A stretch of DNA of 64,000 nt from Candidatus Poribacteria bacterium (GCA_965223985.1 OZ245030.1:3151720-3215719); one strand, 5' to 3'. Numbered from the stretch's first letter, positions 7,440 through 49,400 are shown. Made by a program: numbers and translations. Notes: generated from the sequence alone by a model not told the origin.

Positions 7440-8219
7440 TCAAGGTCTTGTTTTCAGCGACGCCCATGCGGTTGCCAATTTCGCTTCTGGGGAGACAGCG
7501 AGAATACTTTGTATTCCCTGTTCGGCGATTTCTTCAATCTCCTTGACAGATAACGGGCGTGTCCAAAAAGCGACTTCGTCCAGAATGCCATCGAACCGCT
7601 GTTCTTTACCGAATTGCTGCCAGGGCATCCGGGTTCCGAAATACATGGGTCGACCGGTAACTGGCACAGGCCCATCTGGCCCCCCACCAACTTTTTCGCC
7701 GTTAAGATACACTTTACTGTCGCCCGGCTCGTGTGACCATGTCAAGTAAATCCATTTCCCCACCTGACCGAGTCCAGGGGCGAACCCAAAGGTGTTACCT
7801 ATCCCCCAATGGAGGCGTGTGTCATCGAGCAAGAACCATTGAATCCGCGCGCCATCGTTATCGGATTTATCCATCATAGCGCCGCGCCCCCGCTGTTTTG
7901 CCCAGTGCGCAATTGTGAACCCGTCGGGCAATTCATCTATGTCCTCTATGTGTTCGATGATTACAGATGAGTCTTTTTTCGGCGAGAAATCCAGCGCTGT
8001 TCCTTCCATGGCATCATCTGTCCAAGTAGCGCCGTCGATTTCTCCATGATGCTCCCCGATGGAATCTCCAGCCATTTTCCCTTCGCCTTCATCAAAGGTC
8101 CAGAAAGCTACTAGCCCATCTAGAATGTCAGCAGGGGCACTTAGATGAATGACTAGCGAACAAATGGCAATTGCGGTCAAATAAAACATCGGTTTCATCG
8201 TGAATAACCTCCTCATCAA
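7440..8219 (-). CDS. Secreted LamG/concanavalin-like domain protein (paralog 1 of 3)
   Basis: Signal peptide MKPMFYLTAIAICSLVIHLSAPA. Body has the LamG jelly-roll pattern (GLVAFWTFDEG ... ILDEVAFWTRPLSVKEIEEI). C-terminal tail is KLATAWASLKTRP. Confidence 0.7.
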   Translation of the reverse strand: MMRRLFTMKPMFYLTAIAICSLVIHLSAPADILDGLVAFWTFDEGEGKMAGDSIGEHHGEIDGATWTDDAMEGTALDFSPKKDSSVIIEHIEDIDELPDGFTIAHWAKQRGRGAMMDKSDNDGARIQWFLLDDTRLHWGIGNTFGFAPGLGQVGKWIYLTWSHEPGDSKVYLNGEKVGGGPDGPVPVTGRPMYFGTRMPWQQFGKEQRFDGILDEVAFWTRPLSVKEIEEIAEQGIQSILAVSPEAKLATAWASLKTRP

Positions 8220-9073: not shown

Positions 9074-9297
9074 TGGAAACCTCCTTTTTTGCGAACTAGG
9101 TTCAATCGCAATGAGAGTCGATACGGTTTCTCGCCAACAATCTGGATTACGATTTCGGCTGAGAATCCGATACATTGAGGACAGATTCTAACATGGTGTT
9201 AGCCAATGGTAATTTAGATGCACAAGCGGAAGCCTATCAAAGCGGAAGTCAGAAATTATGTCAAGCAGTCATTCCTGTATGCCTAATATGCCAAAAC

Positions 9298-12536: not shown

Positions 12537-14879
12537 CTAAAGCAAAAACAGCGAAATTCCGATATTTGTTCGTTTTTCCGAGCCGCCGACGGGTTCAAGA
12601 AAGCTTTGAATTGCGTAGTCGGAAGCGATTAAGAGCCCCATCTTCTGTCCGAAGACATCTCCCTGCAGCACAAGCTCCAAGAATCCGACGGTGCGGTTAA
12701 AATTATTCTGAGAATCGTTGAGGTCGCGCCACGTGAGAAACTGCGCACCGGCGCTTAATTGCAATTGTGCCGCAACTTGATGGGTTAAGGTCAAGATGTA
12801 GGCATTTCGGATGAAATCGACCGTCGATAGTTTGTCAAACGGGACGGTGTAACTAATTGTCCGGTCGCTCCGGAAAGCGGGTGCGACCGTGAGATCGTCG
12901 CGCACTTTATAGTCGTATCGAATCTGGTTAATCAAGGCGGTATCAATAACGTGCTGCCGACTGTGAAACAGCGCGTCACGCTGATATTTGAATTTACTGA
13001 CGATTGTGAGATTTTCGATGTTCTGGTAATCCACAATCATCGTGAAGATATTGCTCAGATAATTTTGGAGCGCCAAATTGTCCTCAATCTGCTCGCCTGT
13101 GCTGCGAATGACAACGTCATCGGTAATAATGTCGCGCGAGCGACGAAGCGTATGTCGGAACTTGACCGTTCCGAAGTGACGAATCCGATTCGGCGTGTAT
13201 GCAACTATATTATACCATCCTCTTGCACTCTTATGTTCGAGAATCAGATGTTTCGCATAATATCCGGGGATAACAGATAAACTTTCGGTGAATGGCAGAT
13301 CTACCTTAAAATAGGTGTGATGTCCGTAAGAGCCTCTGTCATAATCGTAGCGGTAGTTGGGTTTGTCGTCGTCTTCGAGATTATCCGGCTCGCCGTTGTT
13401 ATTAAAATCGATGGATTCACGATTGAGCCCTAAGCGGAATCTCGGCGGGTCTGCAAAGAAGAGCAGAAAATCGTCATCCCAATCTTTAATGCGATCGCCG
13501 TCGAGATCGTCCTTTGTATTTCCTGAAATCAATATCTCAGGTTCGCGCGAATCTGCGAATGGGTTATCATCGTCGTTGTCGTCCACGAAGTTATCCGCCG
13601 TATAAAAGGGATTAATCCGTGTATATTCGCTGCGCCAAGTCAGTGGCCCAAAGTTTCGATTGACATCAATGAACCATGCGCCGGCTGTTCGCTGTGTGCT
13701 TTGCCCACTCAGAATCGGATACTGCTTCGTCTGTGAATACCATGCACGCTCCGCCTCAATGGAGAAACCGAACAGTGTTGTGTGGAGATCGAAACCCATT
13801 GTCGTTTCATCTGTCAATACCCCGTAGTAAAATCTGTGTACCTGACGGTTCGATTCGTCTTTGACGTTGCCTGGGGCGCTGAGTTCCAATTGAAAGTCGC
13901 GATTGTTCGGTGACAATTCAACGCGATAGTCGTTGGCAATATCGACCTCAAAGCGCACGTTGTTGATGTCCTGTGAGTTGAACAGGAGAAATCGATACGT
14001 GAATGTCCCTTCGCCATCCGCCCTGCGTGACTCATGATCCCGCCGGCTCTTATGAGGTAGGAGCAGAACGCCCGGCGGCTCTCGCCCGCCGACAATCTCA
14101 TGCTCTAGGGCGCCGTCAATGTAGACGCGCACATGGAAAACTTTCGCGCCGCCGGGGTTTTCGGGCGAAGCGTCACTGAAACGGAGAAACAGCTCCGGCG
14201 GCGGATTAGCGATGGTGACCCCTCGAAACGGGTTGGTTGTACGAGTGAGGTCGTAGTTGGTAAAAAACCGATTGACATAGTTGATTCCGAGGCGAGGCAG
14301 AGGTAACGTAAATTCTGGCAACGTCCCCAGTCGGACGCCATGCGCCCCGAGATTCGCCTCCGCTCGGAACCCTGCCATGAACCAATCGGCGGTACTCGTA
14401 ATATCAATGTTTTCGATTGGTGAGGTGCGCTCTCCCAATATCTCAAAGGTGTTGTTGGTCACCCGTCCGATAAACGCTGAAACTCCTCCGTGTGCTTTAG
14501 GAATGGATATATTCCAGCGTGCGGCGTCGAACAGTTCCTTATTCAACGTAAAGCTGGAAAATTTTGTCGGAAAATTGCCGACAGTCAACTGATGACGGAC
14601 GTTCTCGCTGGGGATGTTGAAAGTGAAAAAGTTTCGATTGCTTGTCTTTTTCCGAAATTCCGAATCACGGCGCAGCGTCGAATCGCCTCCTAATACGCCA
14701 AAGGTTGCCTGAATTCTATAGAGCTCTTTTCCGCTCTTATCAAAGACGGGATTGCCCAGCGGATCCACCCGTTGCGCAAGCGCCGAACCCAGAAAGCGGT
14801 CAGAGATTAACAGGTACAAAATCATCAGGTGTAATGCGCAATGGATTAAGCGTGAAGCGTGAAGCGTGAATGCTCTCAT
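12537..14879 (-). CDS. Hypothetical large outer-membrane/secreted protein (about 780 aa) with an acidic Asp-rich segment
   Basis: ATG at 14879 lies 14 nt after an AAGGAG RBS. Signal-like N-terminus MRAFTLHASRLIHCALHLMILYLLISDRFLGSALAQ. Asp-rich calcium-binding-like region (DDNDDDNPFAD...DDLDGDRIKDWDDD). Last gene of the T9SS-cargo / PorV-like cluster. Confidence 0.5.
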   Translation of the reverse strand: MRAFTLHASRLIHCALHLMILYLLISDRFLGSALAQRVDPLGNPVFDKSGKELYRIQATFGVLGGDSTLRRDSEFRKKTSNRNFFTFNIPSENVRHQLTVGNFPTKFSSFTLNKELFDAARWNISIPKAHGGVSAFIGRVTNNTFEILGERTSPIENIDITSTADWFMAGFRAEANLGAHGVRLGTLPEFTLPLPRLGINYVNRFFTNYDLTRTTNPFRGVTIANPPPELFLRFSDASPENPGGAKVFHVRVYIDGALEHEIVGGREPPGVLLLPHKSRRDHESRRADGEGTFTYRFLLFNSQDINNVRFEVDIANDYRVELSPNNRDFQLELSAPGNVKDESNRQVHRFYYGVLTDETTMGFDLHTTLFGFSIEAERAWYSQTKQYPILSGQSTQRTAGAWFIDVNRNFGPLTWRSEYTRINPFYTADNFVDDNDDDNPFADSREPEILISGNTKDDLDGDRIKDWDDDFLLFFADPPRFRLGLNRESIDFNNNGEPDNLEDDDKPNYRYDYDRGSYGHHTYFKVDLPFTESLSVIPGYYAKHLILEHKSARGWYNIVAYTPNRIRHFGTVKFRHTLRRSRDIITDDVVIRSTGEQIEDNLALQNYLSNIFTMIVDYQNIENLTIVSKFKYQRDALFHSRQHVIDTALINQIRYDYKVRDDLTVAPAFRSDRTISYTVPFDKLSTVDFIRNAYILTLTHQVAAQLQLSAGAQFLTWRDLNDSQNNFNRTVGFLELVLQGDVFGQKMGLLIASDYAIQSFLEPVGGSEKRTNIGISLFLL

Positions 14880-14948
14880 CCTTATTTTCCGCTCCTTCTT
14901 TATATGTCCCAACCACGCATTCCACCCGACGTCCACCGCTCGGTTATA

Positions 14949-15905
14949 TCATAAATCATACACGATGCTGACTCGATGGCTGCCGTAGGTGTCTACAATG
15001 CCACCGATCGGAAAAGCGGAGCCGTAATCCATTCGGACGCTATTGCTCAAGCGATATCCTCCGCCGAGTGTCAGATTTGTGCCCCATGCGAGATTTTCCA
15101 ACCGAAACCCGCCGCGCAGCAGTACCTTCCCATCATGAAATTGATGTTCAATCCCAATCTTGACATCAGTTTGGTTACCGATAAAAACGAGGTCCATCCC
15201 CCATGTAGACCGCTCCCCCAAAATGCCGATGCCGAGCGTCACCTGCAGCGGCAACTCCTCCGTTATCTTCGAGGATTTCGAAGCGATGTTGGGGGTATTG
15301 ATATTCTGGACCGACAGCGCGATCGGAATATTCGCAGACGGCCGAAAAACCACGCCAGCGTCTAGGCTAAACCGACTGGAACCTGGCAAGTCCTCTACAA
15401 TCCCACCGTCTGTCCCAATTGTGGGTGCTGTATCCCAATTCAGCAGCTTGAACCCCGTTCCGACTGACAAGCGGCGTTCCTCTTCAGTTCCAAATGCGAA
15501 CCCTTTGCTAAACCCAACGACCAAGTAATTCTCCGAATACAGTTGGCTGACGTTCAACCGCTTCCAGAGCAACCCGAGCGAGCTTCTGAGAGGACCTGGG
15601 TTGGTATAGCTAATCAGGTGCTGTGCGATTGAAGTCTCGTCGGTCAAGCCGAGGTGAAGTCTTGCCATTGTTGCGGACAACTGCCGCGGGGTCGAAAGAT
15701 TTGAGATTGACGCCGGATTAACGAGCAGACCGTCGGATTCATTCGCAATAGCTGCGAACGCGCCTCCCATAGCGTATGCACGTGCGCCTGCGAACTGATC
15801 GTCGAATGCCGCGTGCGTCCGAGGAGAAAAACTGACCGCCCCCAAGCCAAATAAGAAGAGTAGGAGTGTGAATGGGTGGGCTGGCGCGAAGGAGTCAGTC
15901 TTCAT
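14949..15905 (-). CDS. FadL-family outer-membrane beta-barrel protein, PorV/PorQ-like (T9SS-associated)
   Basis: Signal peptide, then the FadL/PorV N-terminal hatch motif GARAYAMGGAFAAIANESDGLLVNPA, then beta-rich alternating sequence. Its start overlaps the stop of the upstream CTD-cargo gene by 4 nt. Confidence 0.6.
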   Translation of the reverse strand: MKTDSFAPAHPFTLLLFLFGLGAVSFSPRTHAAFDDQFAGARAYAMGGAFAAIANESDGLLVNPASISNLSTPRQLSATMARLHLGLTDETSIAQHLISYTNPGPLRSSLGLLWKRLNVSQLYSENYLVVGFSKGFAFGTEEERRLSVGTGFKLLNWDTAPTIGTDGGIVEDLPGSSRFSLDAGVVFRPSANIPIALSVQNINTPNIASKSSKITEELPLQVTLGIGILGERSTWGMDLVFIGNQTDVKIGIEHQFHDGKVLLRGGFRLENLAWGTNLTLGGGYRLSNSVRMDYGSAFPIGGIVDTYGSHRVSIVYDL

Positions 15906-17833
15906 TTTCCCACCACGATCACTCCGTTTCGGACGTCAGTCTGGGCATCGGATTGGAGTTGAATCTGATAGATATACGGTCCAATATCTACAATCCGCCC
16001 CGATCCGTCCCGACCGTCCCATTCGACACTCATGGCGTTCGAATTCATGACGGTCCGATTCATCAACGTTCTCACCAGTCTGTTGTTGAGATTAAAGATT
16101 TCAACGATGAGTTCGGTCTGTCCGAGCTGTGAAGTGCCGGGGTTAATTATTGTGAGTCGTGTTACGTCTGCGATACCGTTTCCGTCGGGTGAAAACGGGT
16201 TAAAATTCCATGTCGTCTGAATTTTAGATGTAACACCTTGGAACAACGCAAATTGGGCAAAATAGTTGAGTTCTAGACTAACGGTCTGGCGATCTAGGTC
16301 GATATCTCCACCTGCTAATTGCCACTCCTTGGCGAGTACGTCCCATGCGAAAATTCTAAGGTCGGCTTCTCGGCGTATATTCGCCGCGAGCAGATCGGAC
16401 GCGGTGTAACTCAATTCTAGAAGCGCCGGACGCTCAAGCAGAAACCGATCAGCTGCGACAAGCGGCACAAGCTTTGAGTCGGAAGCGTCAAAAAATTCGA
16501 CCTCGTTGATTTGAATGTTATTTTCCTGTTTGCTCTCCGTAATTTCGAGTCGGACATACCGGGCAGACGGTTGAGAAGGCAGCTCGATCGCGGTGGTTTT
16601 ATCGTCAAATGGCGAATATTCAAAGAGCTCAATGAAGCTCGTGCCATCATTGGACGCGAGTATTTTCGCCCTTTGCGGTCCAAAAGAACCGTTCTCGGCG
16701 ACATTTGAATGGACGACAATCCGGCTCAGCGCGTGAACCTCGCCGAGATCGACAGTAAGCGCGATAGGAAACGGGACTAACCCTGCGACCCATGTCGAAG
16801 GGGAATCCAGAATGCCGTCAACTGCGAGCGTCGGCGGCTGATCGCGTAGGAAGCTAGTCGCCTCCGCCGCGAATATGCCCTGCCTCAGCGTTTCAAATCG
16901 GTACACGACAACGGGAGCTGTGCCTTCAACAATCTGCGCGTTCCCTGAATAGGACAGAGAATCCAACTGCTCCCGCGGAACTGAATAGAACTGTAGTTTT
17001 TTAATTTTCTCATCGAAGGCGTCAACCGGAACCACTACCGTCGCGCGATCGCCATCGCTCAAGGTGTAATATCCCGCATCGGCGGCATCCGGCCGCAATT
17101 CTGAAATATAAAACAGTGTAATTGACGCCCGATCCGCAGTTTCAAACCGAACCTCGTCTGGCGGCGAGAGTGCGCTGGCGAACAGCGAGAGTCGATTCTC
17201 TCCCGCCTTGAGCAGCACCTGAATCGAAAACGGCGCCCGATTCTGATCCGTGAGATCTAACAGGATTGAAATGGACTCGATGCGGGCTTGTATAATCCGA
17301 TCGTTTATATCTAGGAATTCAACGGATTCGACGGCAATTCTATCCAGTTGCCAGCCTTCAAGCATCACAATCTGAACGAACCGTGCAGAAACGTCTATTG
17401 AAAAATCAACCACAGTCTGATTGAAGATTTTATCTACGCTGGAGGGTACATTTAGGCGTTGCCCATCGGAGAAGTCCGCGCCATCGTGCGCGAAATCCAT
17501 CTGCACCGTTCTCGGTCCCAACGGGAACTCAAGGTCAGGGACGGCACGAATTAAAGCCGCTTTGAGCTGGTGTGAACTTCCTAGGTCAAGAACAATAGCG
17601 TGGAGGGAATGCGCCAACTGCCCCAAATCAGGAACACCGGCGGGCGTGTTGGTCGAGACTACAACTTTTGTTGGAAATGAGGATTCAACAATTCCCTCAA
17701 TCGGTAACACCTGATTGTTTGTTGTAAAATCTGTCCGTGGACGTACAATCGACAGGTCAATTACGGCAAACAATCCCTTGGGGCTAATAACGAAAAACGT
17801 GATGGCGAGCGATATTACGATACGGAATAGCAT
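15902..17833 (-). CDS. Secreted discoidin-domain protein with T9SS-type C-terminal sorting domain
   Basis: Signal peptide MLFRIVISLAITFFVISPKGLFA. F5/8-type C domain (...RIVVHSNVAENGSFGPQRAKILASNDGTSFIELFEY...RYVRLEI). The C-terminal ~90 aa match the FlgD-Ig-like T9SS CTD (NPFSPDGNG...IFNLNNRLVRTL...WDGRDGSGRIVDIGPYIYQIQ...VVGK). Confidence 0.75.
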   Translation of the reverse strand: MLFRIVISLAITFFVISPKGLFAVIDLSIVRPRTDFTTNNQVLPIEGIVESSFPTKVVVSTNTPAGVPDLGQLAHSLHAIVLDLGSSHQLKAALIRAVPDLEFPLGPRTVQMDFAHDGADFSDGQRLNVPSSVDKIFNQTVVDFSIDVSARFVQIVMLEGWQLDRIAVESVEFLDINDRIIQARIESISILLDLTDQNRAPFSIQVLLKAGENRLSLFASALSPPDEVRFETADRASITLFYISELRPDAADAGYYTLSDGDRATVVVPVDAFDEKIKKLQFYSVPREQLDSLSYSGNAQIVEGTAPVVVYRFETLRQGIFAAEATSFLRDQPPTLAVDGILDSPSTWVAGLVPFPIALTVDLGEVHALSRIVVHSNVAENGSFGPQRAKILASNDGTSFIELFEYSPFDDKTTAIELPSQPSARYVRLEITESKQENNIQINEVEFFDASDSKLVPLVAADRFLLERPALLELSYTASDLLAANIRREADLRIFAWDVLAKEWQLAGGDIDLDRQTVSLELNYFAQFALFQGVTSKIQTTWNFNPFSPDGNGIADVTRLTIINPGTSQLGQTELIVEIFNLNNRLVRTLMNRTVMNSNAMSVEWDGRDGSGRIVDIGPYIYQIQLQSDAQTDVRNGVIVVGK

Positions 17834-22048: not shown

Positions 22049-23995
22049 ATGAATCAAACGAGCCCCATTGAAAACCCCAAGCGAGGCGGTGTCCGCCTTA
22101 GAGTTGTTGTCATCGGTCTAATATTGATGGCGCTCAATGCCTATTGGGTCGCAATCAATGATATCATCGTGGGACCGTTGCACAACTACATGTCGCTGTT
22201 CAGCAACGCGGTCTTTACGCTGTTTGCTCTGATTCTGCTGAACCTGATTGTCAAGAGACTGCTGCCGCGCGCATCGCTCAACAGATCCGACCTGTTCGTT
22301 ATCTATGTCATGGTCGTCACGGTGACAACCGTATCGGGACATCCGAGCATGAGCCATGTGGTCGGAATTCTCGCGCACCCGTACTGGTTCGCCACGCCGG
22401 AGAATGACTGGCGAAATCTGTTCTGGGGATATATCCCCGACTGGTTCACCACCCGCGACACAAACGCGCTCAGCGGTTTTTTCCTCGGCGAGACCTCCTT
22501 CTTCAGCCCGCAGTACGTCATACCTTGGCTGGCGCCGATTCTCTATTGGTCCGCGTTTATGTTCGTGCTCTACTTCGTTCTCATCTGTATCAACGTTATT
22601 CTGAGAAAGCAGTTCACCGAGCACGAACGGCTCACCTACCCTATCACGTGGATGCCCCTAGAGATGGGGCGAGACATCTCCGGCTTCCTGAGGAACAGGT
22701 TAATGTGGGCGGGCTTTGGGATTGCGGCGGGCATCAGTCTGCTGAATGGCTTGCATACCTTATACCCTTTCGTCCCCGCTGTGCCCGTGTGGTGGCAACG
22801 GGTCAGCTTCGTGGAAAAACCGTGGAGCTACGCGGGCGGCGTGCTGGTCTCCTTCCAGCCGTTTGTGATTGGGCTCTCATTTTTCATGCCGTTGGATCTG
22901 GCGTTTTCCGCTTGGTTCTTCTACATGCTACAGCTTCTGATACGGATACTGCTGGGCGCGGGGATGGGTATACGCAACCCGTACTTCGATGAACAGGCAC
23001 AGGGGGGTTGGATCGGGTTGGGGATTCTTGCGCTCTGGGTCGGTCGCCGACATCTCAAGCGCGTGTTCGTCCACACGTTCAGCGGCAAGGGCGGAATTGA
23101 CGACACGAGCGAGCCGATGCGGTATCGGACCGCAATCTTGGGAATTGTCGCAGGGCTGCTGTTCTTGCTTGGGTTTGCGTACAAAGCCGGGCTTGATGCA
23201 TGGGTGCTGATCGTGTTCTTGGCGTTATACTGTGCGATTGCGATCGGGGTGGCAAAACTCAGGGCGAGCTTGGGGGTGTCGATCCATCACATCATCTGGG
23301 TAGACCCGCAACGCACGATGGTGACTGCCTTCGGAACACGCGCCTTCGGAGCGCGGAACCTGACGGTGCTGACCTTTCTTTTTTGGCTGAATCGAGAGTT
23401 GGTCGCGCATCCGATGCCGAACCAGCTCGAAGCCTTCCGAATCGCCGAACAGACGGGTACGAACTATCGAAGAGTGTTGTGGGCGATGCTGATAACGCTA
23501 ATCGTCGGGATACCGGTGACCTTTGTGATATACCTCAGCCTTACGTATCACCACGGAGCCGGTAATTCCGCGTCACACATCGTGGGGATGGGGACGGACT
23601 ACTTCACACGTCGTCTCCAACCGTGGTTGAGCAATCCGCTCGAACCGGATTACCTGACAATGAGCATGATTGGTCTCGGGTTTGGGATAATGACCGTTCT
23701 GCTAGTCATGAAGATGCGGTTTCTGTGGTGGCAATTCCATCCGGTGGGGTACGTCATGGGAATTAGCCCGTCGGAGATGAGTTATATCTGGTGCCCGATG
23801 CTTGTTAGTTGGTTTCTCAAGTTCATCGTCTTACGGTATGGCGGATTGAAGGGGTATCGACGCGCCATACCATTTTTTGCGGGCTTGGTGCTCGGAGATT
23901 ACACGATGGGCTGCATTTGGAGCATCATTAGTGCGACCTTCAACGTCGTCACGTATAACATGGGGTGGCACGGACGTCCTAACATGATTCCCTAA
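22049..23995 (+). CDS. Polytopic membrane protein of unknown function (about 13 TM; paralog 1 of 3)
   Basis: 648 aa, highly hydrophobic, with conserved blocks NAYWVAINDIIVGPLHNYMSLFSNAVFTLF, HPYWFATPENDWRNLFW and ERLTYPITWMPLEM shared with ORFs at 60913 and 63626. Confidence 0.75.
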   Translation: MNQTSPIENPKRGGVRLRVVVIGLILMALNAYWVAINDIIVGPLHNYMSLFSNAVFTLFALILLNLIVKRLLPRASLNRSDLFVIYVMVVTVTTVSGHPSMSHVVGILAHPYWFATPENDWRNLFWGYIPDWFTTRDTNALSGFFLGETSFFSPQYVIPWLAPILYWSAFMFVLYFVLICINVILRKQFTEHERLTYPITWMPLEMGRDISGFLRNRLMWAGFGIAAGISLLNGLHTLYPFVPAVPVWWQRVSFVEKPWSYAGGVLVSFQPFVIGLSFFMPLDLAFSAWFFYMLQLLIRILLGAGMGIRNPYFDEQAQGGWIGLGILALWVGRRHLKRVFVHTFSGKGGIDDTSEPMRYRTAILGIVAGLLFLLGFAYKAGLDAWVLIVFLALYCAIAIGVAKLRASLGVSIHHIIWVDPQRTMVTAFGTRAFGARNLTVLTFLFWLNRELVAHPMPNQLEAFRIAEQTGTNYRRVLWAMLITLIVGIPVTFVIYLSLTYHHGAGNSASHIVGMGTDYFTRRLQPWLSNPLEPDYLTMSMIGLGFGIMTVLLVMKMRFLWWQFHPVGYVMGISPSEMSYIWCPMLVSWFLKFIVLRYGGLKGYRRAIPFFAGLVLGDYTMGCIWSIISATFNVVTYNMGWHGRPNMIP

Positions 23996-38860: not shown

Positions 38861-38989
38861 TGTTATGATTTAGGAAAGGAACAACTACCAATTATGGATA
38901 GTTCAACTAAGGCTTGCGAATCTGGCAAGCGAAACAAAATCAAATTCAATCCTTCAACATACAAACATGCAAGGAGGAAACATACAGTC

Positions 38990-41900
38990 ATGTTGAGTAG
39001 AATTTCGAAAATGAGTGTTTTCGGTATCGTTGCGCTCATGCTCGTTCTCGGGCTGGCGTCGGACGATGCGCAGGGACGGGATCCGGCAGCTGGAACATAC
39101 GTGGTAACAATGCAAACAGAACCATCTGTGCTGCGCGCAGCAGACACAGCTACGGTGACGTTTACCCTCACTGTCGACCTTCGGGAAAACAAGTCTACTC
39201 AAGACCCAATCCCGGAGGATCAGGCTAACGCTGATACGGCGGAGCGTACGGTCACCATTAACATTCCGGGAGGGTCGACAGGGTGGTCGCCCAACCCGGT
39301 TGCGTTATCCGGAGAGACTGCGGTGGACCCGGGCGAGGTGAGTTTCGCTAAAACTACTGTTATCACCGACAACACTCTCGCGTGGATTTCCGGGTCTAAC
39401 GCACGGAAGCTGAATATCAAAATTGTCGCAGGAATTGACGGTAATGGTGTATATACCATCGTATACGCAGCGGCGACTGTGCCTAACCGCAAAGGCGATA
39501 GCTACAGATTTTTAATTGACAACGCAGACACCAAAGACATTCCGTATAGCGTTGATTACGCGACGAGCGGATCGGGAACGGTCACGATGAGTCCGTACAG
39601 CCCGTTGGACGCGATTGTTGGCGGCGATGCTGATGATAAAAACGCTTGGAACGGCAAATATGTTTTCAATAGCAAGACGGCGTTAAGACCGTTGAAGTTT
39701 ACTTACAAAGCGGCGGGTTCTATGCCAAAGGATTCAACCGTTTCAATAGTTATGACGGGTGGATTCAGCCTTCATGGAAAGAGCAGTTCCGTAATTTCCG
39801 TGAGCGGTTCCGGTTCTCCAGAACTTTCTACTCCCGTAGATACCGTTGTAGTAGATGAAAGTACTACGGTAGTCGCTACAGTGAAGGCAGAGGGCGGGCT
39901 GGGAGCCGGCCAGTCGATAGCCATAACCATTAGGGAGCTTGTGATGCCGGAGGTCGTAGCGGCAGCCGATGCCCCGGATACGGATAATACCATTACAGTG
40001 ACTTCTACGTCGGGTACTACGAACTTTCAAGACGATGCCCGCCCGGTTGCTATTGACAATGCTGCTGGAGATGTCGACAAAGGTTTATTCGAGTTCTACA
40101 CGACTGCAGCGCCCGGGACCGGTGAAATGACGATTAATTCTGGCGGCGACCCGATTCAAAACATGCGCGTCGTGGAAGGCACTGACCTCGGGACATTGGT
40201 ATTTGGAATTACGGGCACGGACGGTATGGGACCGGACGCCAAATTTCAGATTAAGGTTCCGGGCGCCCCTTGGCCCGAGCCTATTAAGGCGTCCGGCACG
40301 ATTGGCGTTGTTGCCGATTCGGAAGCCGCCGGACACACGGCGAATGCGGAGATTGGCACTGGCGGTGCGGCTCGCACACTCAGCGGAAGCCTTACAACTA
40401 ATACACTTCAATCTGGTACAAATAATCCCGAGGCTAATGCAAATTTGAACGATACTGATAACGGCGGGATTACGTACCGAGCCGGCGCGATATCGGTACA
40501 CGGCAAGCATGAGTTCATGCTTTTGACCAGTTCCGGTCCGCACGGCGCCACATTGAAAGAGAGGACCGGCGGGGACGGGGCTGACGCGTACCCCCGGTAC
40601 ATTGAAGTCACCGCGAAGCACGAAAGCGGTACGTTCGTCGTTAGAGAGGGCGGATCGCCGTTAGTGCAGTCAAAACCCGCGAACGAGCACACGCTCCAGT
40701 TAGTCTTTAAAGCCACTGGCTACATGCCGGCAGGGATGGTTGTGTTTAGGTTCCCGGATAGATGGAAAAGTCCTCGCCGTGACGTCGCTCCGCCGTTTGA
40801 AGTGGGAGAGGTGAGGTTTAGCAATAACGCGACGTTTATTGTCAACACCGACGGGACCATCACTGCGACGGGGGACTGGCGAGATGAGGAAATTGTAGTT
40901 ACCTACAGAGGCATGGTTCCGGGCGAGGCGGGTACCCCGCCCGAGTCACACACTTTTACCGTGGATGCATCATCGTTCGGAGGTGATGCTAGCTTCCCGG
41001 CCCCGGCGGCCCGACCGGCTGCTTATTCCCATACGATTGGTCCCAATCTCGCGGCGGATGGCAGCGGCACACTCGCGATTGAGCCGAAGAATGCGAATGC
41101 CGGCGAGACGATTAATTTGAATATAACTTACACAGCCGCGGGCACGATGGAAGATGGATCAGTTGTTGAGGTTACCATCCCCGAAGGCTGGCCTGATCTT
41201 GATGCGCCTGGCACATCAGTCGAGATCGGCGCAGAGGGCATCGTGGCAACCTTGAATGAGTCGAAGAGGACGCTGACCGCTACAACTGTTGATGATATGG
41301 TCACTGATTCCAAACTCGTGTTCAACGTCACGGGCGTTACAGCGCCGGCTGTCGGCAGAGGTTACCAGTTCACCGCGCAATCAAAATCGCACGGAGAACT
41401 AAAGAGCCTTTCGTCAAGGCAAATCTCCGGTGCAGTCATCAATATCAGCAACGTGGCTGCTGGTTCCGCCCTGCTTACGCTAGTGAGGGAAGACGGAACG
41501 ATGGCGGAATCTGCCGAACCCCTGGATTCGTTTGAAACGGCCAAAATCACTTTTACGGTTGGCTTGGCGATGCAACCCGGGGCGGAGGTTAGGGTCACGG
41601 TTCCGGATGGCTGGACGAATGAACCTTTCCAGGACAACGGCATGCCGCGTACGAGCGGTGAGGTTACGCTTGAAGGGAAGGCGGATCTTAGCGTCGAGGG
41701 AAGCGTGCTGATCGCCAAGGCGAACGCTCAGATTAACCCTGGCGAAACAGTGACGTTCACCTACCATAAGCCGACCGCGCCTGAAGGCGAAACAACATCG
41801 TCTTTCGATACACAGGCGTCAATTGTTGAAGGCGGGGGTTTACTGGCGGTTGCAAATCAGCAAACAACTGTGGTCGTTAGAAGCAAGGTCACCGCGTTGA

Positions 41901-44900
41901 CGCTTACCGCCGAATCGGCGACGAGCGTGTTCGTAGGCGATCCGGTCAAACTCACCGTTAGCTCGGATGCGCGTGCTCCGGTTCGCGGTCTTGCGGTAAC
42001 GTTAGCGACCGATCCGGCTGATACAGGGATGTTCTCCCTGACCGAAGACGGGACAGCCACCACTTCGGTGACGATTGAGGATTCGGCTACTACGATGTCC
42101 ACCACGTTTTATTACATAGGCCCAAGTTCCATTGATACGGCATCTGTCGATGTCGAGTTGACGGCGACGGCTATGGTGGATGGCGAAGCCGTTGCATCTG
42201 ATCCCGTGGAAGTTAATGTCAGGTCCACGATTAGCATGCTGCAGGTTAACGGCATGCATGATGATCCGGAACCGGTGGAGGTTGGTGCCGCAATTACGGT
42301 GACAGCGATCGGTAAAGACGGCAGAGCCACCGTAACGGTAACTGACGCTGAAGAAGAGGCGGTCGAGTCACTAACAAATCTTGGACTTGATGTCGACTCC
42401 GATGCTACTGACGTACCGGCAGGTAGTGTTGCTTACAAGCGTAAAATTGAACTGCCGGACGATCTTGCCGAAGGCGATTACACCGTAACCGTGACTATTG
42501 ACGGCGTTTGGTTGCCAATAGAGATCAGTGTGGTGGCAGCCAGAGCACAGGTTACCGAATTGACGCTCACCGCGTCAGCGGATAATTTCTTCGCGGGCGA
42601 GTCAATCACAGTCACTGTTGCATCGGATGCTCGTGCACCCGTTGACGGTCTTGAGGTGACATTGTCGACAGATCCCGCAGATTCGGGAACGTTCTCCGAT
42701 CCCGAAAGCGAGGAGACCCTCAAGGGAGGGATGGTGACGATTGAGGATGCTGCGGATTCAATGTCTGCAGATGTTAATTACACCAACTCTGCGAGGGGGA
42801 CTTTCATGCTGACGGCGACAGCTATGGTTGATGGCGAGGCCGTTACATCTGACCCGTTGGAAGTTACGGTCAACCCCACGATTACCGTTCAGGTTAACGG
42901 CATGGACGCACCGGAAGCGGTGTTGCCCGGCGCCACAATTAGTGTGACGGCGAGCGGTAAAGCAGGCGGAGGCACCGTAATGGTAACCGACGCTGAAGGC
43001 GAAGCAGTCGAGTCATTAACAGGGCTTGGACTTAATGTCGACGCCGATGCTGCTGACGTTCCCGAAGGCAGCGTTGCCTACATGCGCGACATTGAACTGC
43101 CCGCGGATATTGCTGACGGCACTTACACAGTTACCGTGACAATTGGCAGCGAGTCGGTGCCAGTGATGTTGGAGGTCATGACACCCACAGAACCGGTCAC
43201 CGCTATCGCGATTGTACCGGATCCGACCAGCGTGTTTATCGGCGAGGACATTGCCGTCTCCGTGACGCTGTGGAGCGGTGCCGAAGAAGGGGCTGCCTCG
43301 GCAGCTATGGTCATCAACCTGACGGATGGCGAAGCCGGCGGTAGTTTCACCGATACCGAAGGCAATGCTATCACTTCGGTCACTATAGCCGTTGGAGGTT
43401 TCGACGCGTCTGCGAAATATAGCAATGCCAGCAGAGGCGAAATCACGCTGACCGCGACGGCAGCCGATGAGGCGTTGGAACTTGAGCCGGCAACCGCCGA
43501 TGTCACGGTCAAGCCCTCGATTTACAATTTTGAGGTTAACGGCACGGACGAGCTAGGCCCGCTGACGGCTGGCGTCACAATTACTGTGTCGGCGACCGGA
43601 AAAGAAGGTAAAGCCACCGTAACGGTAACTGACGCGGACGGCGAAGGGGTTGTGCCATCGAAAGGGCTTACAGGACTTGATGAAGAGCCCGATGAAGAGG
43701 GCAACGTTGATTACACGCGTAAATTTGACCTACCGGTCGTTCTTGCCGATGGCATTTACACAGTTACGGTTACCATTGCCGGCGAGACTGCCGCAATGGC
43801 AATCGAAATCATAAACGACCAATCAAAACCGGCGTTGAGCAACCAGAAGGTATTGCCCGACACGGTAGCGAGCGGCAGTGTGATTACGCTTAGAATCGAC
43901 GTGAGTTCTAATGTGCCTAATCCCGAGTTGTCAGTGATGGCGGATGTCAGCGAGATTGATGCCGACCAAGCCGCTGTTCAGTTGACGAAACTGCCCGGGA
44001 CGGAGAGCACCTATGCCAACATCTACGTGGTCAAAAACAGCGACCCGCAAGACGATGGCGAGAAGACCATCACGTTCATGGCGACTGATAGGATTGGCGG
44101 CGCAAGCGAAATGACTGTGTCCACGTCCTTGAAGAACGACGTTACGCCTCCGGTGCTGAGCGATCCGACCGCTATGCCTTCACCAGTGGTGAACGGTATG
44201 GACGTTACCATTTCGGTTAGCAGTGAATCCGGTCTCACGGTCACGGCAGATGCTTCCGAAATCGGCGGCGGCATGGTGACGCTGACCGAGGGTACGGTTG
44301 ACGACGGTATGGATGCCAACGGCAACGGTAATGGTATGGATGCCAACGGCAACGGTAATGGCATGGATGCCAACGGCAACGGTAATGGTATGGATGCCAA
44401 CGGCAACGGTAATGGCATGGATGCCAACGGTAACGGTAATGGCATGGATGAAGATATGGTCGGCACGGGCATGTATAGCAGCGACCCGATCACAGTCGCC
44501 GTTACTGAAGGTGGCGATCAGACCATCACCGTCAAGGCGACCGATGCCTCTGGTAACGAGGCTACCATAGACGTAACCGTCACGGTTGAGGTGCACGAGG
44601 TGACAAGCGTTACTTTCGTTCGCACGGGCGATACGGTTACGGTAACCACGATGGGCACCGCTGGATTGAAAGCGGAGTTCAGCGTCTTCAATGAAGCTAT
44701 GAAGATTATCGGTGAGAAGGCGATGACGGAATCGGATGATGGCGGAAGCTATACAGGCAGTTTCATCATTGTTGTAGACGCCCATCCCGCTGGTGAGTAT
44801 TGGATTTCTAGCAGCGTGGGTACTGCTGCCAGTATGACCGCAGAAGGTGCACTCACGATCGACCACGGGGCGCATTTCACCCTGTCAATCGGCGCGGGTA

Positions 44901-46102
44901 CGCATATAATCCATATCCCGTTAGATGTTAAGCAGATTAACGGCGAAGATGCGTTGATTGACACCGTCGGCGACCTATACGATGCGCTCGGCGAAGCGGT
45001 CAACTACATCATTACGGTCGGCGACGACGGTGGATGGAAGACTTACCTCGGCGATATGAGCGCGGGCACCGCAGCGGACGCGGCAATCGGCGACGATACC
45101 GGTTTGATTGTGGTGATGTCCGACGCTAAGACGCTTGAACTCGTTGGCGATGCGCTAGGTACCGCCGGCGCTTCACAAATTAACATTGACGTGGGGAACA
45201 ACCTCGTCGGTGTACCGCTTGATCCGGTGGTGGATATGATGATTAGCGCCGCGCTGGTCGAAGGTGTTAGTTCAATCTCGGTCTCCAAAGCCGATGGAAT
45301 GGGATTCCACACGATTAGGGAACCCGGCGACGACGGCGACGGTCCTGTCATAGGCGGCGTCGGCTATCTAGTTTCCTACATTGGAGCGGAACCAGCCAGC
45401 ATCCCGATATTCGGTTCAGCATGGGAGAACGACGGATCGGTTTCGGCAGCTCCTGCAATCGCCTTCAGCGGTTCGCAGACGCCGGTGCTGTATGTTGAGG
45501 GCGGCGTTATGGACGAGTTCGACATGTTGTCACGAGTTCCTGAACTCCGTGTCACTGTAAAGAACCTGTCTACAGGCGCTTCGCTCGACACCGTTCTCGG
45601 AACGGAGCAGTCTGCGACAGCGTACAGCGGTACGTTTGTTGAATTGAGCCGCCACGCAGCGAAGGCTGGCGATGTGCTGGAGATAGTAGCGCATTCACCG
45701 AACCCGTACGTTGGTGTTCGACCGGTTCAGCAGATTGTTGTTAGCGCGGAAGAGGTGTTGACGAGCCGTATCAGCTTGCCCGACCTGGAAGTCTACGAGA
45801 TTCCGTCGGAGAGCGAGCTGTTGGCTAACTACCCGAATCCGTTTAACCCTGAAACGTGGATTCCGTACCGGTTAGCGAAAGCTGCCGAAGTGACGTTGGA
45901 TATTTATGACACCAACGGACGCTTGGTACGGACCATTGATATCGGCTTCAAACCAGCCGCTGTGTACGAATCACGTGCATCAGCGATTTACTGGGATGGC
46001 CGCAACAACTACGGTGAACGCGTTGCCAGTGGCACGTACTTCTATCACTTAACTGCGGGCGATGATTATGCATCAACTCGCAGAATGGTGATCCTGAAGT
46101 AA
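38990..46102 (+). CDS. Giant secreted repeat protein (2370 aa) with Ig-like repeat modules and a T9SS-type C-terminal sorting domain
   Basis: AAGGAGG RBS then the ATG at 38990 (12-nt spacing) and signal peptide MLSRISKMSVFGIVALMLVLGLA. Four ~210-aa internal repeat modules (TALTLTAESATSVFVGDPVKLTVSSDARAPV... / TELTLTASADNFFAGESITVTVASDARAPV...). C-terminal CTD NYPNPFNPETWIPYRL...LDIYDTNGRLVRTI...WDGRNNYGERVASGTYFYHLTAG...MVILK. Confidence 0.85.
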   Translation: MLSRISKMSVFGIVALMLVLGLASDDAQGRDPAAGTYVVTMQTEPSVLRAADTATVTFTLTVDLRENKSTQDPIPEDQANADTAERTVTINIPGGSTGWSPNPVALSGETAVDPGEVSFAKTTVITDNTLAWISGSNARKLNIKIVAGIDGNGVYTIVYAAATVPNRKGDSYRFLIDNADTKDIPYSVDYATSGSGTVTMSPYSPLDAIVGGDADDKNAWNGKYVFNSKTALRPLKFTYKAAGSMPKDSTVSIVMTGGFSLHGKSSSVISVSGSGSPELSTPVDTVVVDESTTVVATVKAEGGLGAGQSIAITIRELVMPEVVAAADAPDTDNTITVTSTSGTTNFQDDARPVAIDNAAGDVDKGLFEFYTTAAPGTGEMTINSGGDPIQNMRVVEGTDLGTLVFGITGTDGMGPDAKFQIKVPGAPWPEPIKASGTIGVVADSEAAGHTANAEIGTGGAARTLSGSLTTNTLQSGTNNPEANANLNDTDNGGITYRAGAISVHGKHEFMLLTSSGPHGATLKERTGGDGADAYPRYIEVTAKHESGTFVVREGGSPLVQSKPANEHTLQLVFKATGYMPAGMVVFRFPDRWKSPRRDVAPPFEVGEVRFSNNATFIVNTDGTITATGDWRDEEIVVTYRGMVPGEAGTPPESHTFTVDASSFGGDASFPAPAARPAAYSHTIGPNLAADGSGTLAIEPKNANAGETINLNITYTAAGTMEDGSVVEVTIPEGWPDLDAPGTSVEIGAEGIVATLNESKRTLTATTVDDMVTDSKLVFNVTGVTAPAVGRGYQFTAQSKSHGELKSLSSRQISGAVINISNVAAGSALLTLVREDGTMAESAEPLDSFETAKITFTVGLAMQPGAEVRVTVPDGWTNEPFQDNGMPRTSGEVTLEGKADLSVEGSVLIAKANAQINPGETVTFTYHKPTAPEGETTSSFDTQASIVEGGGLLAVANQQTTVVVRSKVTALTLTAESATSVFVGDPVKLTVSSDARAPVRGLAVTLATDPADTGMFSLTEDGTATTSVTIEDSATTMSTTFYYIGPSSIDTASVDVELTATAMVDGEAVASDPVEVNVRSTISMLQVNGMHDDPEPVEVGAAITVTAIGKDGRATVTVTDAEEEAVESLTNLGLDVDSDATDVPAGSVAYKRKIELPDDLAEGDYTVTVTIDGVWLPIEISVVAARAQVTELTLTASADNFFAGESITVTVASDARAPVDGLEVTLSTDPADSGTFSDPESEETLKGGMVTIEDAADSMSADVNYTNSARGTFMLTATAMVDGEAVTSDPLEVTVNPTITVQVNGMDAPEAVLPGATISVTASGKAGGGTVMVTDAEGEAVESLTGLGLNVDADAADVPEGSVAYMRDIELPADIADGTYTVTVTIGSESVPVMLEVMTPTEPVTAIAIVPDPTSVFIGEDIAVSVTLWSGAEEGAASAAMVINLTDGEAGGSFTDTEGNAITSVTIAVGGFDASAKYSNASRGEITLTATAADEALELEPATADVTVKPSIYNFEVNGTDELGPLTAGVTITVSATGKEGKATVTVTDADGEGVVPSKGLTGLDEEPDEEGNVDYTRKFDLPVVLADGIYTVTVTIAGETAAMAIEIINDQSKPALSNQKVLPDTVASGSVITLRIDVSSNVPNPELSVMADVSEIDADQAAVQLTKLPGTESTYANIYVVKNSDPQDDGEKTITFMATDRIGGASEMTVSTSLKNDVTPPVLSDPTAMPSPVVNGMDVTISVSSESGLTVTADASEIGGGMVTLTEGTVDDGMDANGNGNGMDANGNGNGMDANGNGNGMDANGNGNGMDANGNGNGMDEDMVGTGMYSSDPITVAVTEGGDQTITVKATDASGNEATIDVTVTVEVHEVTSVTFVRTGDTVTVTTMGTAGLKAEFSVFNEAMKIIGEKAMTESDDGGSYTGSFIIVVDAHPAGEYWISSSVGTAASMTAEGALTIDHGAHFTLSIGAGTHIIHIPLDVKQINGEDALIDTVGDLYDALGEAVNYIITVGDDGGWKTYLGDMSAGTAADAAIGDDTGLIVVMSDAKTLELVGDALGTAGASQINIDVGNNLVGVPLDPVVDMMISAALVEGVSSISVSKADGMGFHTIREPGDDGDGPVIGGVGYLVSYIGAEPASIPIFGSAWENDGSVSAAPAIAFSGSQTPVLYVEGGVMDEFDMLSRVPELRVTVKNLSTGASLDTVLGTEQSATAYSGTFVELSRHAAKAGDVLEIVAHSPNPYVGVRPVQQIVVSAEEVLTSRISLPDLEVYEIPSESELLANYPNPFNPETWIPYRLAKAAEVTLDIYDTNGRLVRTIDIGFKPAAVYESRASAIYWDGRNNYGERVASGTYFYHLTAGDDYASTRRMVILK
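44306..44440 (+). repeat. Five near-identical tandem copies of a 27-bp unit (third-position T/C alternation) inside giant gene 1, encoding (MDANGNGNG)x5
   Basis: gg(t/c)atggatgccaacggcaacggtaat x5, in frame. Confidence 0.8.
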
Positions 46103-46116
46103 ATGTTCGCCGCAGA

Positions 46117-46165
46117 TTCACCCTTTAGCTGCTAGGCGGGCTCTGTACTGCTTAGCAGCTAATTT
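46117..46165 (+). terminator. Candidate intrinsic terminator of giant gene 1
   Basis: agctgctag-(15 nt)-cttagcagct stem followed by aattttttgtttt. Confidence 0.5.
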
Positions 46166-46187
46166 TTTGTTTTAGTTTGAAATCACC

Positions 46188-46215
46188 CCCCTCAGTCCCC
46201 CCTTGGTAAGGGGGG
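46188..46215. repeat. Copy of the CCCCCTTGGTAAGGGGGG hairpin repeat
   Basis: cccctcagtccccccttggtaaggggggagg; same family as the 26820-27015 array. Confidence 0.5.
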
Positions 46216-46269
46216 AGGAGAACAACAGTTCCAACTATTTAAAAAATTGCGGTACGAGAGAATAAACAA

Positions 46270-46305
46270 CTTTCAAACTGGTTGTTACTTGTGTTATAAT
46301 AGATA
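46270..46305 (+). promoter_or_regulatory. Candidate extended -10 promoter for giant gene 2
   Basis: tttcaaa ... TGtTATAAT (ctggttgttacttgtgttataatag). Confidence 0.4.
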
Positions 46306-46469
46306 TGTTTCGACGGCTTTATAAAACATAATTGGTCTGGTGTAAAATTTTTTGTTGTTTGTTTCATGAATTTGCTTTATGAAGTGTTTTGATTGGTCTT
46401 GGTCGGGCTCACTTTCCGAAACCCGCATGTGAGCCGAATTGATGAGCGAAATTTTTGGGAGGTTGAATA

Positions 46470-49400
46470 GTGTTTAACATCATGAGTAAGGGAAAACTCG
46501 TTTGGTTTCTGATTTTGGTTACACTTGCGAGTGGTTTGATGATGAGCGTAGCGCAGTCGGTCCACGCCCAATCGGTGAGCTTGTTCATATTGAATGGTAC
46601 GCTCACGGATGCGGATGGCGTTGCGCTGGTAGGGTACACCGTGGAGGCGCCAATTGCTGAAGAAAGCACATTTGGGAGCGGCGTATCTATAACAGACGAA
46701 CAAGGAAATTACTCGATCGAGTATAACGACTTGAGCGGAAGAGTCAGCGTTGGCGACTCAATTGAGGTAATTATCAAAGACCCTGACGGGAACGTTGTAG
46801 GGGAAACGTCGTATACCGTTACTTCTGCGGATATATCGCCTCGAATTGGACGGGCGACGCACGATATCGCAATTCAGATGTCAGGGCTGACGCTTGATTT
46901 GATTAACGTTCAGTTGCCTGCGGATGGCGAATCGACGGCGGAAATAACCGTTTCGATCGAGTCGGGCGATGGGCCGGTCATCGGTGACACGGTGACAATA
47001 ACGGCTGACATGGGCAGCGTCGGCGAGGTTACGGATAACGGCGACGGGACGTATACGGCTGTGTATACGGCGCCCGCGTTGGTTATTAATGAACCGGCGA
47101 CGGATACGATTACGGTGAGTTCTGACACAACAGGCGATTCGGTAACCGCGGTAATAACGTTGGAGCCGGTTCCGACGGACATTAGAGTATCGGTCGAGCC
47201 GAGCGCATTTATAGCGGGCTCGGGCGAGACTGGCGCCGTTTCGATTACAGTGAACCGCGGCGGCAACGCTGTGGTGGACGCAGACATTTCATTGGTAGTG
47301 AGACGCGCGGATGGCGGTGCCGACAGCGGCGCGGCTACTGATGTGACGAACAACGGTGACGGCACGTACAGCGCGACATTTACGGCTCCGAACACCGCGG
47401 GACAGATTGATTTTTCCGCAACGGACGCAGTTTCCGGCGCGAGCGGGATGGCGTCAGTTAATGTGAAGGCGGGACCTGCGGCGGCAATTTCGGTGACGGC
47501 AGCGCCCACGTCAGTTTCGAGCAACGGACGCGCAGTAATCACTGCAGCGGTCGCGGATGCATCGGGTAACGGTGTCGGCGGATTGACGCTTAGCCGTACG
47601 GCAGAGAGCGGCACGGTCGGCGAATTCAGCGAAGGGTCTACAGTTGGGAGTTACAGCGCGGCATATACCGCGGGTACGGTTGAGGCGGAAGGAGGGGATA
47701 CCGTAACCGTTAGCGTCGACGACCTATCCGGTCAGGTGACGATTAACCTTACACCGGTTCCGCCGAAGGCAGTAGAAATTCTTGTAATCACAGGCACAGT
47801 GAACAAGCAAGACGGTACGGGACCCGTCAGCGGGGTGAATGTAGAGGTTACAGTCGGCGACATGACGCAGCCACCGGCGCAGACGGACAGCAATGGAAAC
47901 TACACCGTCACCTTCTTCACTCCGGGCGGCGTTGCGGCACGCGAAGGCGAAAGCGTTACTGTTGTTGTCACGGACGACGCCGGCGAGGAACGCGGACGGG
48001 ACGAATCGGTATTGACGCGAGAGGAGCTAGGCGAGGGGAATTCCGCGGATATTGAGCGCAATGTGAATACCGATATTTTGGCGAGAACCACGTCGTTGGT
48101 GGTGACCGGTTCGGTGTTCCGCGAAGAGAGCGAGGTGCCGATTGACGACGTGTTTGAGATTACAGTGATGAACACGACGCGCGGGACGGAAATGTCCGGT
48201 ATGACGGACGAGAACGGAATGTATGTTCTCACCTTCTTCGGCACAGACGTTGTTGCTGAGACGGGAGACGAGATAGTAGTGACGGCTTCGAGAGAGGGAA
48301 GCGAATGGAGCAGTCCCCCGCATTCGTTGTCTTCGGAAGACGTTGAAGCGGGCAGAGCGATGGTGAACGTACCGACCGACATCAAGGCGTCAGCCCTAGC
48401 GCTTGTGGTGACGGGTAAGGTTCTCTTTGACGACGGGACCATTGCAGTTGGCGCCGGTGTGACCGTAACTTCGATTAACGATGGACGCGGACTGGAAGCG
48501 ACAGGCGAGACTAATGCAGATGGGATGTATTCCGTGACCTTCTTTACAGGTGATGTCGTTGCGGAAACTGGAGACGTGATTGTCGTCACAGCCGTGCACG
48601 ACGGCGACGCGGTCGGCAGCACGGAACGTACGCTCTCATCGGCTGAAGTGGACGCACAGCGCGCGGAAGGCGTGGATGTGGTTACCAGTATAAAAGCGTC
48701 AACGACGACGTTAGCGGTGACTGGTACGGCGTACTACGAAGGCAGCATGATCCCCGTCGGCGGCGGACAAACCGTGACTGTCGTGAACAACATGAACGGG
48801 ATGGAGTCCACCGGGACAACGGAGGAAGACGGTACGTTTGTCGTTACGCTCATAGCCATTGAGGGGGTTGCCGCGGAGACGGGCGACACGCTGACCATCA
48901 CGGTGACAAGCGAAGCGGACGGCAGCGGCAGCATTGAACATACGTTATCGGCGATGCAGATTGATGCGCAGCGCGCTATGGTTGATGTTCCGACGAACAT
49001 TAAGGCGACCTCATCAACGTTCGTTGTGTCAGGTACGGCATACCTTGAAGATGGGGTAAGCGGTGCGCCCCACGATTTGACCGTTAAAGTCATGAACGAA
49101 ACGCAGGGGATCAATGCGGAAGGCGTAACCGTTCCGGGCGGCGGATACATTGTGACGTTCTTGGAGACCGATGCAGCGGCTGTGAAGACTGCGGATGAGT
49201 TGACATTCGACGTGCTTGTAATGGCGGCAGACGAGACGCCCGTCGGGGAAACTTCCGTTACGCTCTCATCGGCTGATGTGGTTGCGCAGCGGATTGACGG
49301 CATAGATATCACGACGAGCCTCAGGGCTGACCCGACCAATGAGTTTGTCGTTTACGGTACGGTTCGAGATCCGTCGGGCAACATCGTTGGGGCGGGAGTA

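Follow-up and report, generated by a model that had tools for sequence, protein, structure and literature searches.

A stretch of 64,000 nucleotides (nt) from Candidatus Poribacteria bacterium (GCA_965223985.1 OZ245030.1:3151720-3215719), referred to here as the window, carries at positions 12537-17833 three adjoining minus-strand open reading frames (ORFs), designated genes A, B and C. A preliminary description, made from the sequence alone, had presented them as a cargo gene with a type IX secretion system (T9SS) C-terminal domain (CTD), a small FadL/PorV-like barrel gene and a gene for a large outer-membrane protein, and ORF calling bore out all three genes with their boundaries. Homologues of B and C that carry an organism name were all assigned to Candidatus Poribacteria. 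Coordinates of these genes, of their domains and of related features are collected in Table 1.

Table 1. Features of the window, with example positions from other loci in the last row (aa, amino acids; Ig, immunoglobulin; HMM, hidden Markov model; pLDDT, predicted local distance difference test)
Feature	Position	Strand	Basis
Gene A, secreted discoidin protein with Ig-like C-terminal domain	15902..17833	-	643 aa ORF; Pfam F5_F8_type_C; orthologues upstream of B and C elsewhere
Discoidin (F5/8 type C) domain of A	16511..16861	-	aa 325-441; Pfam
Ig-like C-terminal domain of A, related to T9SS CTDs	15905..16201	-	aa 545-643; sub-threshold HMM matches
Gene B, 318-aa outer-membrane barrel with predicted 14-strand FadL/PorV fold, PorV/PorQ/PorP-SprF superfamily	14949..15905	-	
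N-terminal hatch-like motif of B	15711..15788	-	aa 40-65; nearly invariant in B-family alignment
Gene C, predicted large outer-membrane beta-barrel	12537..14879	-	780 aa from ATG 14879; ORF to GTG 14936, 799 aa
Beta-sandwich insertion of C, between barrel strands	13878..14195	-	aa ~229-334; DSSP of model, pLDDT 86-96
Asp-rich, calcium-binding-like loop of C	13338..13595	-	aa 429-514; conserved Asp/Asn
Two giant surface proteins with type A T9SS CTDs (2402 and 3033 aa)	38894..55571	+	Pfam Por_Secre_tail, FlgD_ig
PorV/PorQ-family barrel of the second locus, 312 aa	55672..56610	+	NCBIfam PorV_fam, 102.1 bits, cut-off 90
DUF6785+DUF6784 polytopic membrane protein, possible further component	22049..23995	+	Pfam; hydrophobic multi-pass sequence
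DUF6785+DUF6784, further copies	60913-62847; 63626-64000 (partial)	+	Pfam
DUF6785 genes at other loci, examples	L041/L042/L047/L050/L051 12293-14233; L088 1159-3111; L007 11625-13640		

Gene A encodes a protein with a signal-peptide-like N-terminus and a discoidin domain recognised over the Pfam cut-off (E 7e-15), as had been proposed. The T9SS CTD assigned to the same protein held in qualified form, the tail being related to such domains but scoring under every curated cut-off. Its last ~100 aa gave sub-threshold matches to FlgD_ig (18-22 bits) and CHU_C (16.2-21.4 bits; the 27-bit cut-off was not reached), together with a match to the PorU C-terminus (E 1e-5 to 7e-7). There was no match to the type B model TIGR04131 at E <= 0.01 and none to the type A models TIGR04183 and Pfam Por_Secre_tail. 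The domain was 37 % identical to the CTD of an Ignavibacteria orthologue and has the FxPxGxG ... WDG ... GxYxY blocks of the CTD alignment, the consensus of which, FTPNGDGxND ... IYDLxGRLVRxL ... WDGxDxxGxxVPPGxY ... VVY, appears in A in the degenerate form NPFSPDGNGIAD ... IFNLNNRLVRTL ... WDGRDGSGRIVDIGPYIY ... IVVGK. CTDs encoded directly upstream of C-family genes (n=56) were scanned singly at E <= 0.01. FlgD_ig was matched by 53, the PorU C-terminus model by 51, CHU_C by 50 and TIGR04131 by 45, with weak matches to TIGR04183 in 34 and matches to the PorZ model in 16. The CTD profile matched 190 proteins; in 179 of them the match lay no more than 10 aa from the C-terminus, and in the rest no more than 25 aa. 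Judged by these profiles, the A-class tail is an Ig-like domain of the T9SS type that falls cleanly into neither type A nor type B. A literature search returned nothing usable on FlgD-Ig CTDs with outer-membrane partners.

Gene B encodes a protein with a signal peptide, for which AlphaFold2 (46 homologues) predicted a 14-strand barrel (pLDDT 82, predicted template modelling score (pTM) 0.78). The PorV_fam and Toluene_X alignments cover its hatch-like motif (GARAYAMGGAFAAIANESDGLLVNPA), and the modelled protein shows the structural hallmarks of PorV/PorQ, a 14-strand FadL-type barrel with an N-terminal hatch. The designation of B as a FadL/PorV-like barrel with a hatch motif was upheld by this model. 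The position of the gene, directly 3' of a CTD-substrate gene, is that expected of PorP/SprF. Against NCBIfam PorV_fam (NF033709), B scored 46.8 bits, under the 90-bit cut-off, and this model was matched by every one of the 46 B-family members (best E 3e-18). Against PorP/SprF (TIGR03519) the score was 22.2 bits (E 8e-5, cut-off 90.55), with an alignment spanning model positions 35-291 of 292, nearly end to end, and 24 of 46 family members matched. Pfam Toluene_X gave 13.5 bits (cut-off 29.7) over the N-terminal 50 residues only, and a profile search of PDB sequences with the B alignment gave no match. Because it lies under all curated cut-offs, B was placed by its sequence in the PorV/PorQ/PorP superfamily, as a divergent member, and assigned to no single family.

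Gene C matches no curated family. No NCBIfam family was matched, a profile search of PDB sequences with the C alignment was negative, and the sole Pfam contact was with SlpA_C (PF21620), at 23.4 bits (cut-off 35) and over aa 338-457 only. Searched with a C profile, 1.84 billion cluster representatives (50 % identity clusters) yielded relatives of C in 1,159 clusters, 840 of them at E <= 1e-10, and the family is present in Poribacteria, Latescibacterota, Gemmatimonadota, KSB1, Ignavibacteria, Zhuqueibacterota and Handelsmanbacteria. Topology prediction, which the preliminary description had recommended for this protein, gave a barrel of ~24 strands by DSSP with an inserted, confidently predicted beta-sandwich (73 homologues; pLDDT 80, pTM 0.72). 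In size it is comparable to usher, LptD and SlpA barrels. The top Foldseek match was Deinococcus SlpA (E 1.3e-8), with a template modelling (TM) score of just 0.22. Identification of C as an usher or as SprA-like was considered and rejected, the barrel similarity being generic only. The Asp-rich segment remarked upon earlier is real. In the 780-aa form it contains 23 Asp in 86 residues, and the model places it as a loop between two later strands, with low confidence at aa 438-455. Residues D436, D443, D466, D491, N493, D499 and E502 are invariant across the 73 homologues, and with so many invariant Asp/Asn positions the segment is therefore not a product of chance composition. In Latescibacterota and Gemmatimonadota, C genes also occur as tandem pairs or triplets (L029, L037, L060, L065, L043, L045, L046, L066, L084 and L085), and single genomes can hold at least four separate C loci (for example OZ244561.1 and OZ247580.1).

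Spacing within the locus required some correction. The figures of ~780 aa and 12 nt previously given together for C both exist but belong to different starts: translation from GTG 14936 begins 12 nt past B and gives the 799-aa form, while translation from ATG 14879 leaves a 69-nt gap and gives the 780-aa form. The ATG is the more likely start on sequence grounds, because the closest homologues are ~780 aa long (for example P0121, 780 aa, 99 % identical), AAGGAG lies just 5' of this codon and a normal signal peptide results. The stop codon of A and the start codon of B share an ATGA, and this 4-nt overlap had been taken as translational coupling. The overlap stands for the window but is lineage-specific, as A and B in other Poribacteria are separated by gaps of 380-700 nt, by an ISL3 insertion or by a response-regulator gene. 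The ISL3-family transposase gene (L010 7484-8806) is on a closely related Poribacteria chromosome, OZ242326.1, whose C is 90 % identical; OZ246960.1 and OZ242354.1 are further complete Poribacteria chromosomes with the locus. The response-regulator gene, of OmpR type, was found in pelagic and lake relatives (L002 6976-7686, L091 5193-5945) and suggests local regulation of the module. Promoter and terminator scans of the locus were uninformative, with sites not above those of shuffled sequence, and the organisation of A, B and C as an operon was therefore inferred from spacing only.

Gene neighbourhoods were compared at 80 loci from species-representative genomes of Poribacteria, Latescibacterota (with several paralogous loci per genome), Gemmatimonadota, KSB1, Zhuqueibacterota and Handelsmanbacteria; Ignavibacteria loci came from a separate look-up outside this sample. 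The 80 loci were fetched by C similarity alone, and the sample is therefore unbiased toward A and B. Neighbourhood ORFs were searched with HMMs of B, C and the CTD of A. At non-Poribacteria loci, a CTD-protein gene was located within 2.5 kb upstream of C in 49 of 57 cases and downstream in 9 of 59. Counted by phylum, an upstream CTD gene was present at 39 of 49 loci in Latescibacterota, 12 of 13 in Gemmatimonadota and the single loci of KSB1 and Handelsmanbacteria (1/1 each). Typically one to three consecutive CTD genes precede C, several of them with discoidin domains. Gene B stood between the CTD gene and C at all ten Poribacteria loci (10/10), and the same arrangement was found in KSB1 (L020), in Ignavibacteria (L005/L006) and at L001, L090 and L091. 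A B gene directly after a CTD-substrate gene was also seen at L001, L005, L020, L026 and L090. At L002 an A orthologue and B are paired, with C not alongside. In Latescibacterota and Gemmatimonadota, CTD genes adjoin C without B. On this comparison of gene order, the A-type CTD protein is the hub, its gene being found with that of B, that of C or both according to lineage, and across phyla the constant neighbour of CTD-protein genes is C rather than B. The large outer-membrane protein had been treated as a mere appendix of the cargo-barrel pair, and this view did not survive the comparison.

Several further genes were seen at these loci. A complete B-like barrel (aa 17-320) is joined to an OmpA domain in a 606-aa protein (L008 10370-12196, also L009 9331-11157), the gene for which, at L008, comes right after a C-family gene and a gene for a CHU_C-tailed protein. 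A 311-aa gene after C at L007 was checked and is not a B homologue, and the 299- and 311-aa genes upstream at L055 (Latescibacterota) do not encode B-type barrels. SurA-like peptidyl-prolyl isomerase and FG-GAP/ASPIC-UnbV genes lie beside C clusters in two Latescibacterota locus types (L041 1428-4772 and L055 12420-15444, both minus strand). Several Poribacteria have a discoidin/CBM9 protein of ~1900-2000 aa encoded directly downstream of C (L001 11558-16945, L090 9247-12882, L015 12040-17970), and no such gene is at that position in the window, where HflK/HflC genes come downstream of C. HflK/HflC were rejected as part of the module, their linkage being confined to Poribacteria. In Ignavibacteriaceae (L005 11001-18994), A, B and C are followed on the same strand by genes for a 1048-aa tetratricopeptide repeat/YfiO-like protein, DUF4159 proteins, ExbB, two ExbD and PBP_like_2, and at L090 a DUF4159 gene is upstream of the A-B-C triad.

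The interpretation preferred here, to which a probability of about one half is attached, is that A, B and C form an outer-membrane surface-display module working on the T9SS cargo/shuttle principle, with C as a required platform or pore. The observations from which it starts are the domain content of the proteins, the folds predicted for B and C, and the way in which the genes stay linked across phyla. Protein A, to judge by its signal peptide, would be exported by Sec. The small barrel B would then capture it, using the Ig-like CTD as a handle, take it to the cell surface and hold it there, where the discoidin domain could bind carbohydrate ligands. C, a predicted ~24-strand barrel with a putatively surface-side beta-sandwich and a putative calcium-binding Asp-rich loop, would be the obligatory third partner, serving either as a platform for the A-B complex or as a pore used by A. 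Binding of the A CTD by B is proposed by analogy with the pairs SprB-SprF, PG1035-PorP, PorZ-PorQ and PorU-PorV, and the surface location of A, any role of C and dependence on a SprA-type translocon are likewise presumed.

The pairing of cargo with a small barrel recurs at a second locus of the window, as had been claimed. Two giant proteins (38894-46102 and 46470-55571) carry Por_Secre_tail domains at 29.0 and 36.1 bits (cut-off 27), as well as FlgD_ig, and are followed by a 312-aa barrel that passes the PorV_fam cut-off and is 24 % identical to B. Since type A CTD giants are here followed by a cut-off-passing PorV-family gene, this bacterium uses T9SS-type parts. Directly after this barrel gene, at 56718-57614 (+), is a gene for a LysM protein with a long coiled coil, which, from its domains, could be a peptidoglycan-binding partner of the second-locus barrel.

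A number of points weigh against the display module. The A CTD and B are both under every curated family cut-off, and the 64-kb window has no SprA, PorK/L/M/N or PorU. The T9SS has been described as restricted to Bacteroidota/the Fibrobacterota-Chlorobiota-Bacteroidota (FCB) group (PMC12618676), and a literature search found no paper on T9SS in Poribacteria and no functional link. CTD genes stand beside C without B in Latescibacterota and Gemmatimonadota, which excludes B as a receptor common to all CTDs of this class. An orphan B orthologue, with neither a CTD nor a C neighbour, also exists (L092). This orphan is the exception to the claim that B is a dedicated cargo partner and not a fatty-acid transporter, which is otherwise favoured by the HMM matches, by synteny in Poribacteria, KSB1, Ignavibacteria and further metagenome lineages, and by the pairing rule described in PMC12618676 and PMC9143113.

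A more specific proposal can be made only tentatively, namely that the C family is an undescribed outer-membrane component partnering specifically with Ig-CTD proteins, either as a SprA-independent translocon or anchor or as a Sus-like import channel with a DUF6785 partner. Both options have a counterpart among the alternatives to the display module. The better of these, although unlikely, is Sus-like glycan capture and import, in which C would be a wide outer-membrane uptake channel, the CTD proteins tethered glycan binders (held via B where it is present) and DUF6785/6784 an inner-membrane permease. Discoidin is a carbohydrate-binding fold (Pfam), and the closest relatives of C are porin-like giant barrels (SlpA by Foldseek, with weak SlpA_C matches in many members). 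Genomes hold several C paralogues, each with its own lectin-like neighbours, as in SusC/D pairs. DUF6785 homologues were found at ~27 of the 80 C-family loci. At L041, L042, L047, L050, L051, L054, L056 and L079 the gene follows C by 4 nt, and at L059, L063, L064, L082 and L088 it directly precedes the CTD run. In the window there are two and a half copies, near both loci. However, DUF6785 is multi-copy, so that some proximity is expected by chance, and it has no known function; no PDB relative of the DUF6785/6784 proteins and no usable literature on DUF6785 were found. Glycoside hydrolases and sugar regulators were not consistently nearby, and neither a TonB box nor a plug domain was recognised in C.

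It is improbable that C instead serves the neighbouring CTD proteins as their own translocon or usher, independent of the T9SS and comparable to TpsB, Slam or fimbrial ushers, with the CTD as targeting signal and B as an optional accessory. Such a role would be in keeping with the CTD-to-C gene order, which is kept across phyla even without B, and with the beta-sandwich between barrel strands, which recalls the plug of ushers; multi-copy barrels with private cargo genes argue against one general translocon. Usher N- and C-terminal domains and a chaperone gene are missing, however, neither an energy source nor a periplasmic partner was recognised, and two papers (PMC11205867, PMC12398890) report T9SS in FCB phyla that carry C. 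An ordinary FadL-type function for B, as a channel for hydrophobic compounds whose place between A and C would have no functional meaning, was rejected as scarcely credible, since all HMM evidence favours PorV/PorQ/PorP, mature B has ~285 aa as against ~400 for FadL, and the A-B linkage is kept in distant lineages.

Other genes of the window include three for secreted Laminin_G_3 (concanavalin-like lectin) proteins of ~260-310 aa (7440-8219, 8237-9175 and 30515-31447, minus strand). Two of them adjoin, and one of the proteins is weakly similar to the fimbrial protein TafC (NCBIfam). A CDP-alcohol phosphatidyltransferase is encoded at 58369-59064 (+). Its best NCBIfam matches, all under cut-offs, were (archaetidyl/phosphatidyl)inositol phosphate synthases, a hint that this bacterium may make inositol phospholipids.

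Sorting tails of the T9SS type abound in uncultured phyla related to the FCB group. The locus extends the logic of type B cargo with a private barrel to Poribacteria, and an unannotated, conserved family of large barrels is a more constant companion of CTD cargo genes than the PorP/PorV-like barrel. C is thus a concrete, testable candidate for a missing outer-membrane partner of CTD proteins, and the family offers a handle for annotating about a thousand 'hypothetical' large outer-membrane proteins. The cluster, found here only in metagenome-assembled genomes of Ignavibacteria and Gemmatimonadota, may also be present in cultivable members of those phyla.

Among known systems, the closest parallel is that of type B CTD substrates with PorP/SprF-like barrels (SprB-SprF, Fjoh_3952-Fjoh_3951, PG1035-PorP-PorE), in which the gene for a protein with a beta-rich CTD is followed by that for a ~300-aa barrel. 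Type B substrates of Flavobacterium johnsoniae need cognate PorP/SprF-like shuttles, and the shuttle gene immediately follows that of its substrate (PMC12618676). PG1035 of Porphyromonas gingivalis and SprB of F. johnsoniae, both of type B, were found bound to PorP and SprF, respectively; PorP also binds the OmpA_C-like protein PorE, and anchoring of type B proteins via a PorP-like barrel has been proposed (PMC9143113). The end-to-end alignment of B with the PorP/SprF model, the sequence blocks that A-class CTDs have in common with CHU_C/TIGR04131 and the natural barrel-OmpA fusion, which recalls PorP-PorE, are all likenesses to these systems. The differences are that B and the CTD score far under the family cut-offs, that the host belongs to Poribacteria, that the A-class CTD, at ~100 aa, is fitted about as well by FlgD_ig, PorU C-terminus and type A models as by type B, and that nothing in the systems described corresponds to the third conserved gene, which encodes the large barrel C.

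The remaining systems are less similar. Unlike the PorU-PorV/PorZ-PorQ attachment complex, A has no sortase domain, B reaches 46.8 of the required 90 bits, and no sign was seen of anionic lipopolysaccharide (A-LPS) or an attachment complex. C differs from Deinococcus SlpA (SlpA_C, PDB 7zgx/8ae1) in being under the cut-off, with a TM score of ~0.2, in its ~24 rather than 30 strands, in the absence of an N-terminal S-layer homology (SLH)/coiled-coil region and in genomic context. Fimbrial ushers (FimD/PapC) are recognised by a 24-strand barrel with plug, periplasmic domains and a linked chaperone gene, a combination not found for C, which is 7 % identical to them, has no periplasmic N- or C-terminal domains and is accompanied by no chaperone or pilin genes. 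SusC/SusD loci share with the present ones the pairing of multi-copy outer-membrane barrel genes with genes for surface carbohydrate-binding proteins, and a polytopic inner-membrane protein is often clustered with them; unlike SusC, C is by sequence no TonB-dependent transporter, the binding proteins are CTD-tailed and not lipoproteins, and no glycoside hydrolases are linked. CTD cargo with its own small barrel is therefore a known design, new here in its host, Poribacteria, and in sequence divergence only, and the new point is the C family beside CTD-protein genes.

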